The notes under the pieces: model-generated
Database searches by the model: none
Seen by the model: only the letters and a program-made list of their open reading frames with translations
Told to the model about the DNA's origin: nothing
Translations under genes and position numbers: made by a program
NCBI GenBank assembly: GCA_021786105.1
Contig: JAJYNW010000024.1
Span: 1-10,240 of the forward strand
Source: a bacterium
GTDB lineage: Bacteria; Patescibacteriota; Microgenomatia; Daviesbacterales; UBA10151
Length of the DNA stretch: 10,240 nucleotides
Direction of reading: 5' to 3'
In this document: one piece after another, positions 7,899 to 9,201 of the stretch
How the letters are laid out: each line of letters begins with the position of its first letter
Position numbering within the stretch: position 1 is the stretch's first letter

Positions 7899-7936
7899 TT
7901 TCCCCAAAAGCAGTAATGCCTTTGTCTCATAGTTAT

Positions 7937-7965
7937 TTGACATATTTACTGAATAATGTTATAAA
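7937..7965 (+). promoter_or_regulatory. strong sigma70 promoter driving attenuator cassette 1
   Basis: TTGACA (7937-7942), 17 nt, TATAAA (7960-7965), with an extended -10 TG at 7957-7958. Confidence 0.75.
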
Positions 7966-7975
7966 TTATTAGGAT

Positions 7976-8056
7976 ATGAAAAATATTTTAATTTTAAATT
8001 TGCATAACACCTATTACACCGCCTTAATCTTTGGCGGTGTTCATCGTAGAGTTTAA
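7976..8056 (+). CDS. putative attenuator leader peptide 1 (26 aa)
   Basis: MKNILILNLHNTYYTALIFGGVHRRV*. Starts just after the predicted TSS, overlaps hairpin 8016-8040 and ends ~30 nt before a terminator. Confidence 0.65.
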   Translation: MKNILILNLHNTYYTALIFGGVHRRV

Positions 8057-8086
8057 AGCTATTTATAAAAGATATCCCACTTAATG

Positions 8087-8110
8087 AACCCGCCAAGAGG
8101 CGGGTTTTTT
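8087..8110 (+). terminator. intrinsic terminator of attenuator 1
   Basis: AACCCGCC-AAGA-GGCGGGTT followed by TTTT, located upstream of the 8216 gene. Confidence 0.8.
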
Positions 8111-8215
8111 AGTGGGTTAAAGTCGTAAATCGACATTAATGGGATAACTACAAACTAATCCGCGTACAGCGGGTGATTTTAATTCTGTGTTATCCCAGGA
8201 AAGGAGGTGATAAAA

Positions 8216-8707
8216 ATGAATAGAGAAATACAAACAGTTGGTATTGGAGAAGTATTTTTACCTGTATCAAGATCGGGTGATATCGATTTTCAGATATTTG
8301 GTAAGAATATAGTGGGTAGATTTGAGCTTAATATTGCGGAATTAGGACGCAGAAGCTCTATCCCTTTTGTGGTAGGACTTAACTCGGGAGTTAAGGATGA
8401 TCGGAGCGGGCTTTTACACAGACTCCATGTTGAGTCGGATCGAAAGCGGCTTACACAAAGGCAATTAATTGAAGTCCGCGAGAGAGATTTTTTGGGCCTT
8501 AAATGGCAGAAGGGACTTTTCTTTCCGGAGGTTTTGGCAGTGGCACAGCGGCTACGTTTGCACCTGATGCGACCAGAAGGAAGGTTAGAACATGAGCCTG
8601 ATGAGGAGGCACTGAAAAAAGGCGCAATAGAGTTTTCCCCGAGGCCTGCTGTTGAAGATACGGGAGCGTTGGTGATGGTCAGGTGGAGGTTTATCCTGGC
8701 CGACTAA
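8216..8707 (+). CDS. hypothetical protein (163 aa) behind attenuator 1
   Basis: SD AAGGAGGTGA (8201-8210) points to in-frame ATG 8216; the ORF-track GTG at 8207 is part of the SD. No family recognised. Confidence 0.75.
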   Translation: MNREIQTVGIGEVFLPVSRSGDIDFQIFGKNIVGRFELNIAELGRRSSIPFVVGLNSGVKDDRSGLLHRLHVESDRKRLTQRQLIEVRERDFLGLKWQKGLFFPEVLAVAQRLRLHLMRPEGRLEHEPDEEALKKGAIEFSPRPAVEDTGALVMVRWRFILAD

Positions 8708-8758: not shown

Positions 8759-8839
8759 ATGAAAAATAAATTTTTACAACTGAATAACTATGCTTATTTT
8801 AGCCTACCGAAAGGGGGTGCATTTTTAGTGGTTAAATAA
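8759..8839 (+). CDS. putative attenuator leader peptide 2 (26 aa)
   Basis: MKNKFLQLNNYAYFSLPKGGAFLVVK*. Same length and layout as leader 1, ending ~27 nt before a terminator. Confidence 0.6.
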   Translation: MKNKFLQLNNYAYFSLPKGGAFLVVK

Positions 8840-8866
8840 CTTTTTAAAGCTTTACCAACTAGATTT

Positions 8867-8892
8867 AAGCCCCCGCAAAGGGGGCTTTTTTT
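8867..8892 (+). terminator. intrinsic terminator of attenuator 2
   Basis: AAGCCCCC-GCAAA-GGGGGCTT followed by TTTTT. Confidence 0.8.
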
Positions 8893-8903
8893 ATGCAAAT
8901 TTT

Positions 8904-8926
8904 GAAAGGAGGTGATAAAAATGAAT
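8904..8926 (+). repeat. 23-nt exact direct repeat (SD plus start block), other copy at 8199-8221
   Basis: GAAAGGAGGTGATAAAAATGAAT is present at both 8199-8221 and 8904-8926. Confidence 0.9.
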
Positions 8927-8964
8927 CTTGAAATGAACAAAGATTAGCTCCTCGTGAGTTAAGA

Positions 8965-9201
8965 ATGGTGCAAAAAAGACAGTGGACTGCCGGTGAGCTG
9001 GAGAGGGAGGTGATTAGGTGTGGATTTGAAATTGTCCCAGGGGGAAGACACGCTCATCATGTTGTCCGTATCGATCCTGAAACAGGCAGGAGAGGTTTTA
9101 TTGGTTGTTTGCCTGGGCACCGGGGAAAAAACGTTCCCATTGGTACAGCCCGTGACCTGATCAACCGATTAAGGCAGGCCATGATGGAAGAAAGGAGTTA
9201 A
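8965..9201 (+). CDS. HicA-like type II toxin (mRNA interferase fold), divergent
   Basis: 78 aa with the HicA pattern: ELERE...GFE, G-x-H (GGRH), LPGH and VPIGTARDL. Confidence 0.65.
   Translation: MVQKRQWTAGELEREVIRCGFEIVPGGRHAHHVVRIDPETGRRGFIGCLPGHRGKNVPIGTARDLINRLRQAMMEERS

Follow-up and report, generated by a model that had tools for sequence, protein, structure and literature searches.

Why does a bacterium of the order Daviesbacterales keep a 26-codon open reading frame (ORF) between a near-consensus promoter and an intrinsic terminator, upstream of an orphan ORF? The arrangement, here called cassette 1, lies at positions 7937-8112 of a 10,240-nucleotide (nt) stretch of contig JAJYNW010000024.1 (assembly GCA_021786105.1); ‘the window’ below means this whole stretch. 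Leader-peptide attenuation is textbook knowledge in Proteobacteria and is known in Actinobacteria. Our full-text literature search, which did not cover supplements, found nothing linking it to the candidate phyla radiation, Patescibacteria, Daviesbacteria or Microgenomates. From the sequence of cassette 1 and a comparison across the order, we conclude, with a probability of about 70%, that positions 7937-8112 form a working transcription attenuator of the ribosome-mediated, leader-peptide kind, carried on a transcript that is nearly leaderless.

Architecture of the cassette 1 leader

Cassette 1 and the features immediately behind it lie on the plus strand. Its near-consensus promoter comprises a -35 box TTGACA (7937-7942), a 17-nt spacer, TG at 7957-7958 and a -10 box TATAAA (7960-7965). 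This promoter was read by eye, as the automated scan demanded T at the sixth -10 base and skipped TATAAA. From the promoter position, transcription is predicted to start at about 7971-7973, giving a 5′ untranslated region of ~3-5 nt. Since the promoter ends 10 nt upstream of ATG 7976, the short ORF would thus sit on a nearly leaderless transcript.

The leader ORF (MKNILILNLHNTYYTALIFGGVHRRV; 7976-8056) follows directly behind the promoter, comprises 26 codons plus TAA, and is presumably translated. Codons 13-14, TAT TAC (8012-8017), are in-frame tyrosine codons and the proposed sensing position, while codons 20-21, GGC GGT (8033-8038), encode Gly-Gly. Three pairing segments overlap and follow these codons. 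Segment 1, ACACCGCC (8016-8023), forms 8 base pairs (bp) with GGCGGTGT (8033-8040; duplex energy -16.0 kcal/mol). Segment 2, TTGGCGG-T-GTTCAT (8031-8044), has the Gly-Gly codons inside it and can pair with either segment 1 or segment 3. Segment 3, ATGAAC-CCGCCAA (8084-8096), is both the antiterminator partner of segment 2, in a 13-bp helix with T8038 bulged (duplex energy -20.2 kcal/mol), and the 5′ arm of the terminator. The terminator itself pairs AACCCGCC (8087-8094) with GGCGGGTT (8099-8106) around the loop AAGA, runs into a T run at 8105-8110 and has an energy of -14.9 kcal/mol. Helices 1:2, 2:3 and 3:4 are mutually exclusive, with 3:4 being the intrinsic terminator and its U tract. An earlier note on this DNA, made from the sequence alone, had described these helices, the U tract and the in-frame TAT-TAC; on re-reading the sequence, every coordinate was correct.

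The spacing suits a ribosome-operated switch. The tyrosine codons stand at the 5′ edge of segment 1, and the stop codon (8054-8056) lies 10 nt past segment 2. With the usual ribosome footprint assumed, a ribosome stalled at the tyrosine codons hides segment 1 only, and a free-running one at the stop codon hides segment 2; codons 13-14 alone stand where a stalled ribosome would mask segment 1 and leave segment 2. The leader is identical, with zero differences, in DNA contigs of four sequencing runs. Among the public RNA runs looked through for the locus, none containing it was listed.

Folding of cassette 1

The 166-nt region 7960-8125 folds with an energy of -50.1 kcal/mol, compared with -27.6 +/- 3.3 kcal/mol for 200 dinucleotide shuffles (z -6.77), none of which folded as well (0/200). 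The helix energies are -14.6 (1:2), -14.9 (3:4) and -16.3 kcal/mol (2:3). Which helix prevails depends on the length of the transcript and on what is masked. With no ribosome and a transcript ending at 8096-8100, helix 1:2 forms and segment 3 is left free. When the RNA is masked up to 8069, mimicking a ribosome at the stop codon, the terminator alone forms. The earlier note had expected that masking segment 1 would shift the fold towards antitermination. This is borne out for transcripts ending at 8096-8100, where keeping 7972-8030 unpaired makes helix 2:3 the minimum-free-energy (MFE) structure (-17.0 to -17.8 kcal/mol); the full-length RNA, by contrast, keeps the terminator at equilibrium.

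A family of short-ORF leaders across the order

Cassette 1 is one of many such leaders. The search pattern (GGNGGT, 35-60 nt, CCNCC, 3-6 nt, GGNGG, N, TTTT) was derived from two loci, L011 and L015, that carry the ~90-nt element described below and where short ORFs ending in ..GG.. have Gly-Gly codons matching the terminator that follows. Across 96 genomes of the order the pattern gave 92 rows, 89 of them unique, in 61 genomes. Read backwards it gave 6 rows, and a control with the first gap shifted to 75-100 nt gave 12 rows, each from a different genome, so that the family is ~7-fold enriched over the spacing-shifted control. The junction of terminator and ~90-nt element, also tried as a pattern for collecting leaders, matched just 5 of the 96 genomes and was dropped.

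Nearly all matches carry a short ORF. An ATG-initiated ORF of 16-54 codons (median 28) spans GGNGGT in 85 of the 89; the other four comprise two at contig ends and two within ordinary genes. The stop codon falls 1-24 nt past GGNGGT in all but one of the 85 (that one at -1), with 9 nt the commonest distance (42 cases). A promoter scoring at least 9/12 lies within 40 nt in 67 of the 85 leaders, and in 52 of those 67 the -10 box ends 3-13 nt upstream of the ATG; a Shine-Dalgarno (SD)-like motif occurs in only 7/85. When all RNA ahead of segment 2 is masked and the transcript stops short of segment 4, helix 2:3 is the MFE structure in 80 of 85 leaders. Cassette 1 shares all of these family features: a promoter next to the ATG, GGCGG/CCGCC separated by a gap of 51 nt, a stop codon 15 nt on and a U tract. 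It differs from most in the paired motif itself, which is GGAGG/CCTCC in 67/89 matches and GGCGG/CCGCC in cassette 1.

The family also settles what the glycine codons are for. The earlier note had guessed that they are kept for RNA pairing rather than for glycine sensing, and the reading frames agree. GGNGGT is read as Gly-Gly (frame 0) in 60 of the 85 short ORFs, and in frame 1 (11 cases) or frame 2 (14 cases) in the remaining 25, giving peptide tails such as ..REVC and ..LGRSF, respectively. The middle base of GGNGG, on the other hand, complements that of CCNCC in 86/89 matches (A:T 67, G:T 9, C:G 4, T:G 3, G:C 2, T:A 1), and the helix extends by at least 2 pairs on the 3′ side in 67/89. As Gly-Gly is read in only 60/85 while the middle base pairs in 86/89, the constraint on segment 2 is RNA pairing. 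MAFFT alignments (of cassettes 1 and 2, and of four leaders) mis-registered segment 2; pairs were therefore counted by script, without a covariance model.

Helix 1:2, by comparison, is predicted in just 19 of the 85 leaders, cassette 1 among them. In most leaders, segment 3 must therefore be freed by a ribosome standing at the stop codon, and cassette 1, with its unusually strong 1:2 helix, is the ‘textbook’ extreme of the family. Cassette 1 is not a member of a catalogued leader family: against the Rfam leader families, the match of Trp_leader (RF00513) to 8026-8113 scored 26.9 bits (E 0.048), below the gathering threshold of 41, and the Rfam scan of the window found no other leader, riboswitch or T-box family at E <= 1.

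At many loci (L044-L064 and others) the next gene takes its ribosome-binding site and start from the 3′ arm of the terminator, GGGAGG, together with the U tract and ATG. Judged from this overlap, such terminator hairpins could act against translation in addition to transcription. A conserved GAAAGGAGGTG module precedes many first ORFs that are otherwise unrelated and that open with M-E-R-E, M-N-R-E or M-x-E-R.

Leader codons track the genes behind them

If these leaders sense amino acids, their codons should relate to the genes that they precede. The first downstream ORFs of all 85 leaders were scanned against Pfam, and the leaders were sorted into classes by thresholds set after viewing the data; because related genomes are not independent, the counts that follow carry no P value. 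Aromatic leaders, having at least 5 F/Y/W among the 12 codons before segment 2, number 20, and precede DAHP_synth_1 in 8 cases, prephenate dehydratase (PDT) in 2 and an ORF of no family in 10. Put the other way round, all ten first ORFs encoding one of these two enzymes stand behind aromatic leaders, and none behind the 65 other leaders. All four leaders of W-Y-H-H type precede a class I/II aminotransferase (Aminotran_1_2). Among six Ile-rich leaders, one precedes an HMGL-like enzyme and one a RidA-like (Ribonuc_L-PSP) protein. Behind the Thr-rich (5) and Leu-rich hydrophobic (35) leaders stand ORFs of no family, with two exceptions. The earlier note's description of cassette 1 as a trpL-like attenuator is supported by an 85-leader family in 61 of 96 genomes, in which codon content matches the first downstream gene.

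The Leu-rich class is the commonest (35/85). It encodes a conserved hydrophobic peptide of ~33 residues ending in ..LGGLFR, or ..LGRSF where the other frame is read (examples are L050:1500, L063, L087:254, L116 and, in the genome under study, C7:19846-19935 on the minus strand). The ORFs behind it are nearly all unrelated singletons of 50-150 amino acids (aa). Such leaders may work as Leu-type attenuators, or may sense membrane insertion ahead of a gene slot that is hypervariable. Thr/Cys-rich leaders (e.g., ..CSTTTTTLNKGGFVV; L080, L092, L060, L081, L107) stand before a conserved ~260-aa protein of no Pfam family.

In a genome of the same genus (G001, locus L015), an aromatic leader, a terminator and the ~90-nt element precede a 322-aa protein (L015:533-1501, minus strand) that has no Pfam, NCBIfam or PDB sequence match. 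The guess that this protein is a DAHP synthase found no support in Pfam, NCBIfam, the PDB sequence search or BLASTP. Its ESM Atlas model, however, resembles DAHP synthase (template-modelling score 0.66-0.86), which is a lead rather than proof; on the strength of this model, the protein may be a divergent DAHP-synthase-like enzyme. Both L011 and L015 adjoin a recJ-like gene.

Probable descent from aminotransferase-linked leaders

The closest relatives of cassette 1 within the family are the four aminotransferase leaders, which come from other genera and align with it at 74% mean column identity. Common to all are GGYGGTGT, the CCGCC/GGCGG terminator, TTTTTTAGTGG and a tail of five codons that leads up to the stop, which is 15 nt past GGCGGT in cassette 1 and at the same distance in the four others. 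The same three helices occur throughout, at -8.4 to -15.5 (1:2), -16.5 to -20.3 (2:3) and -13.4 to -15.9 kcal/mol (3:4). In the distal half of helix 2:3, GTTCAT/ATGAAC in cassette 1 replaces GTGTGG/ACACAC of the aminotransferase class, so that both strands differ and the pairing is kept.

The alignment also bears on the sensing codons. TAT TAC ACC GCC of cassette 1 is aligned to CAT CAC ACT TCC, TAT CAC TAC ACC TCC and similar strings, and its Tyr-Tyr occupies the site of the His/Tyr codon cluster of the aminotransferase class, at the 5′ edge of segment 1. This correspondence is the best support for the tyrosine codons as the sensing position, which is plausible; our confidence in tyrosine specificity is lower than in the attenuator itself. 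In the aminotransferase subclass, Aminotran_1_2 stands directly behind the leader, whereas no such gene follows the alignable cassette 1. By descent, we take cassette 1 to be an orphaned copy of the leader found before the class I/II aminotransferase in four related genera, re-attached to another gene.

The ~90-nt element and the orphan ORF

Between the T run and the ribosome-binding site of the next ORF lies a structured element of ~90 nt (8114-8199), made up of a hairpin P1, an invariant helix GGGATAAC/GTTATCCC (8141-8148/8189-8196) and an inner hairpin. Five copies are present in this genome (G000), the others lying at C14:67537-67625, C20:51253-51341, C20:15557-15648 and C22:55643-55704, and many relatives carry copies as well. 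A 19-sequence alignment has compensatory changes at 10 of 24 predicted pairs. No Rfam family was found for the element in a scan of the window and four element loci. At cassette 1 it looks like an insertion, because in the aminotransferase-class leaders TTTTTTAGTGG is followed at once by the start region. It separates terminator and gene at only three attenuator loci (cassette 1, L011 and L015).

At eight loci (L002-L004, L014, L016, L020, L022 and L034) the element lies inside an incomplete copy of the 5′ end of a tRNA (D-loop), with the full tRNA immediately downstream. Elsewhere, it follows a promoter or a terminator. L038 and L018 have a leader with no ORF, consisting of a promoter, a small hairpin and a terminator, AAAACTCGCC..GCGAGTTTTTTT, directly followed by the element and then by a tRNA or other structured RNA.

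The gene placed under the attenuator begins with a strong SD sequence, GGAGGTG (8203-8209), and continues as an ORF of 163 aa (8216-8707). It matches no Pfam or NCBIfam family, and the only homologue found in 60 relatives or in a search of 5.8 billion proteins was the ORF itself. The scan, which required T at the sixth -10 base, found no promoter-like site between 8113 and 8215, and expression of the ORF would therefore depend on read-through from cassette 1.

Cassette 2 and other attenuators in the same genome

A second unit, cassette 2 (8759-9201), follows in the window, with a short ORF (MKNKFLQLNNYAYFSLPKGGAFLVVK, 8759-8839), a weak 1:2 helix and a terminator at 8867-8887. The two cassettes have a 23-nt ribosome-binding and start module in common, 8199-8221 matching 8904-8926. 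In cassette 2, ATG 8921 opens 8 codons only, and a HicA-like frame (8932-9201) lies one base out of register; its match to Pfam HicA_toxin (23.4 bits) is under the cutoff of 27. In one low-depth contig of run X4, 8932 is followed by an additional C; with it, the start and the HicA-like frame would be in register.

A looser scan identified three further short-ORF attenuators in the genome (MNTQRLATITAIIITSPAGGS, MKSHQPTFSFYFTYFWFTSRKGGWLMS and MNLILIESLLVLVTLLTVLLRGACLGGLFR). One is Ile/Thr-rich (C5:178-240), one is aromatic (C7:20005-20085) and precedes three small Cys-rich ORFs and then, by a label assigned by eye, an aminoacyl-tRNA-synthetase-like gene, and the third is the hydrophobic one at C7:19846-19935, on the strand opposite to the aromatic one. 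The two attenuators on C7 are divergent, like those in G001 (L015). As these attenuators precede ORFs that are not biosynthetic, the device in this organism stands before genes not recognisably of biosynthesis.

Proposed mechanism

In the mechanism that we propose, RNA polymerase would start ~4 nt upstream of ATG 7976, and a ribosome would translate the 26-codon ORF. When charged tRNA-Tyr is plentiful, the ribosome would reach TAA 8054-8056 and cover the 3′ part of segment 2, segments 3 and 4 would pair, and transcription would end at the T run (8105-8110). When charged tRNA-Tyr is short, the ribosome would stall with tyrosine codon 13 or 14 in the A site, covering segment 1 (8016-8023) and leaving segment 2 free. 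The 13-bp 2:3 helix would then form before segment 4 is made, and the polymerase would go on past the ~90-nt element and transcribe ORF 8216-8707. If the transcript carries no ribosome, helix 1:2 would form and the terminator would act.

Several observations weigh against a working attenuator at this site. The first group concerns the target. The regulated ORF is an orphan with a poor ESM Atlas model (predicted local distance difference test score 0.33), and it might turn out not to be a genuine gene. Neither DAHP synthase nor prephenate dehydratase nor the aminotransferase of the leader class was found in this 92%-complete genome, and there is no cognate pathway here for cassette 1 to regulate; the sole weak aminotransferase match is a different enzyme next to an asd-like gene, as judged by reading the sequence by eye. 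The classical arrangement, in which the downstream gene belongs to the pathway of the sensed amino acid, is seen in relatives (aromatic, Ile and aminotransferase classes) and not at cassette 1. The second group concerns the leader itself, which has two tyrosine codons only, and 3 aromatics in the 12 codons before segment 2 against 5-8 in the aromatic class. Moreover, the Phe-Tyr-Phe leader aroR, before the DAHP synthase operon (aroF) of C. glutamicum, is described in part of PMC11802643 as responding to Phe, with Tyr supply having no effect; tyrosine codons alone are therefore no proof of tyrosine sensing. Nor was an orthologue of cassette 1 found: when 7930-8215 was compared with 60 relatives by BLAST, strong matches were confined to the ~90-nt element, those to the leader part being 19-31 nt long (E 7e-5 to 0.01), and the conservation of cassette 1 itself is for this reason not measurable.

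The third group concerns the equilibrium folds. With segment 1 masked, the full-length RNA retains the terminator (-24.3 kcal/mol, against -17.8 kcal/mol with 2:3 enforced), and segment 2 pairs elsewhere, near 8071-8080. The switch can therefore work only kinetically, as in classical cases. Cassette 1 is not alone in this: 34 of the 85 leaders, cassette 1 included, have the terminator in the free, masked and ribosome-at-stop equilibrium folds alike, and masking flips terminator to antiterminator in only 18/85, which makes equilibrium folding uninformative as a test of the switch.

Alternative explanations

Much of the evidence just given would also suit a relic, that is, a leader descended from a working attenuator that now serves as a fixed leaky terminator or insulator before the orphan ORF, with no selected amino-acid response. 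The missing cognate enzymes, the orphan downstream gene and the two tyrosine codons that are left all point this way, as does the neighbouring cassette 2, with its weak 1:2 helix and a downstream frame that is broken in this assembly. In cassette 1, nevertheless, the short ORF is intact with its start and stop, as are all three helices, whose strength exceeds that in most of the family. It has a predicted 1:2 helix, as only 19 of the 85 leaders do, and 2:3 pairing has been kept through the two-sided differences from its nearest relatives. In addition, the three other intact attenuators before non-biosynthetic genes in the genome suggest continued use. We therefore consider a relic unlikely, while giving it real weight.

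What a working attenuator would sense is a separate matter. Instead of tyrosine, the signal could be ribosome stalling in general, whether it arises from translation stress, from antibiotics or from an overall lack of amino acids. Unrelated orphan ORFs stand behind leaders of several codon classes, and in cassette 1 itself His, Asn, Thr and Tyr codons are mixed just upstream of segment 1. A general sensor would not, however, explain why codon content tracks the recognisable first genes (DAHP synthase or PDT 10/10, aminotransferase 4/4, and two Ile-pathway genes), or why codons 13-14 alone are placed to hide segment 1 and spare segment 2. On this balance we find a general sensor improbable, and retain tyrosine as the plausible signal.

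The unit 7972-8110 might also be mainly a gene in its own right, specifying a trans-acting small RNA or a 26-residue peptide, with control of the ORF secondary. Its strong promoter and strong terminator, and the ~90-nt element that separates it from the ORF, are compatible with such a role, for which the products of the Sinorhizobium trp attenuator, as described in parts of PMC6614838 and PMC7298713, are a precedent. The peptide sequence, though, is not conserved, the family reads segment 2 in three frames, and the ORF has no promoter-like site of its own at 8113-8215 and so needs read-through; attenuation would be compatible with a trans-acting product anyway. We give this explanation very little credence. 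Chance co-occurrence of a short ORF and helices in an AT-rich spacer, which only the absence of an orthologue favours, is highly improbable in view of the shuffling result, the enrichment of the pattern and the alignment with four leaders from other genera.

Implications

Together with its ~85 relatives, the locus indicates that bacteria with tiny genomes use this device widely, in the form of leaderless mini-genes, and that the device has been retained even though the search of this genome did not find the matching pathway. It offers a testable handle on how host-dependent bacteria sense amino-acid supply, and marks unknown genes that are switched on in response. Moreover, since its members read one stretch of nucleotides in all three frames, the family provides clean natural evidence that a conserved ‘Gly-Gly’ is an RNA constraint.

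A broader idea, which we put forward tentatively and regard as more doubtful than not, is that ultra-small, largely auxotrophic bacteria keep leaderless attenuators as portable starvation sensors. Upon loss of biosynthetic genes, these would be re-attached to fast-changing orphan genes, partly by way of the mobile ~90-nt element, which would bring a new ribosome-binding site. The target of cassette 2 would then be a HicA-like toxin gene. If so, a cell running short of tyrosine or other amino acids from its host would turn on accessory or growth-arrest functions and not synthesis.

Comparison with known systems

Enterobacterial trpL and pheL, as presented in parts of PMC11802643 and PMC3082878, provide the closest parallel in design. 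They likewise have a short leader ORF with the sensed codons, mutually exclusive 1:2, 2:3 and 3:4 helices, a terminator, and a stop codon at which a ribosome that has not stalled would block segment 2. Cassette 1 differs in its nearly leaderless mRNA with no usable SD sequence, in the orphan gene that takes the place of a biosynthetic operon, and in lacking membership of any Rfam leader family.

The aroR-aroF system resembles the aromatic leaders in relatives of this genome, in that a leader with aromatic codons stands before DAHP synthase (PMC11802643, in the part describing this leader). It belongs to another phylum, and no DAHP synthase stands behind cassette 1; the likeness is one of design. 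The leaderless leader peptides of Actinobacteria, exemplified by the mycobacterial polycysteine short ORFs, share with cassette 1 a start at or near the 5′ end of the transcript and, according to parts of 10.1101/834739 and PMC1262725, act as amino-acid-responsive attenuators. They differ in their Cys codons and sulfur-related targets (same sources, in part). Cassette 1 thus joins a known type of switch, and what sets it apart is its lineage, its leaderless design, a Gly-Gly that is an RNA constraint, and its re-use before an orphan gene.

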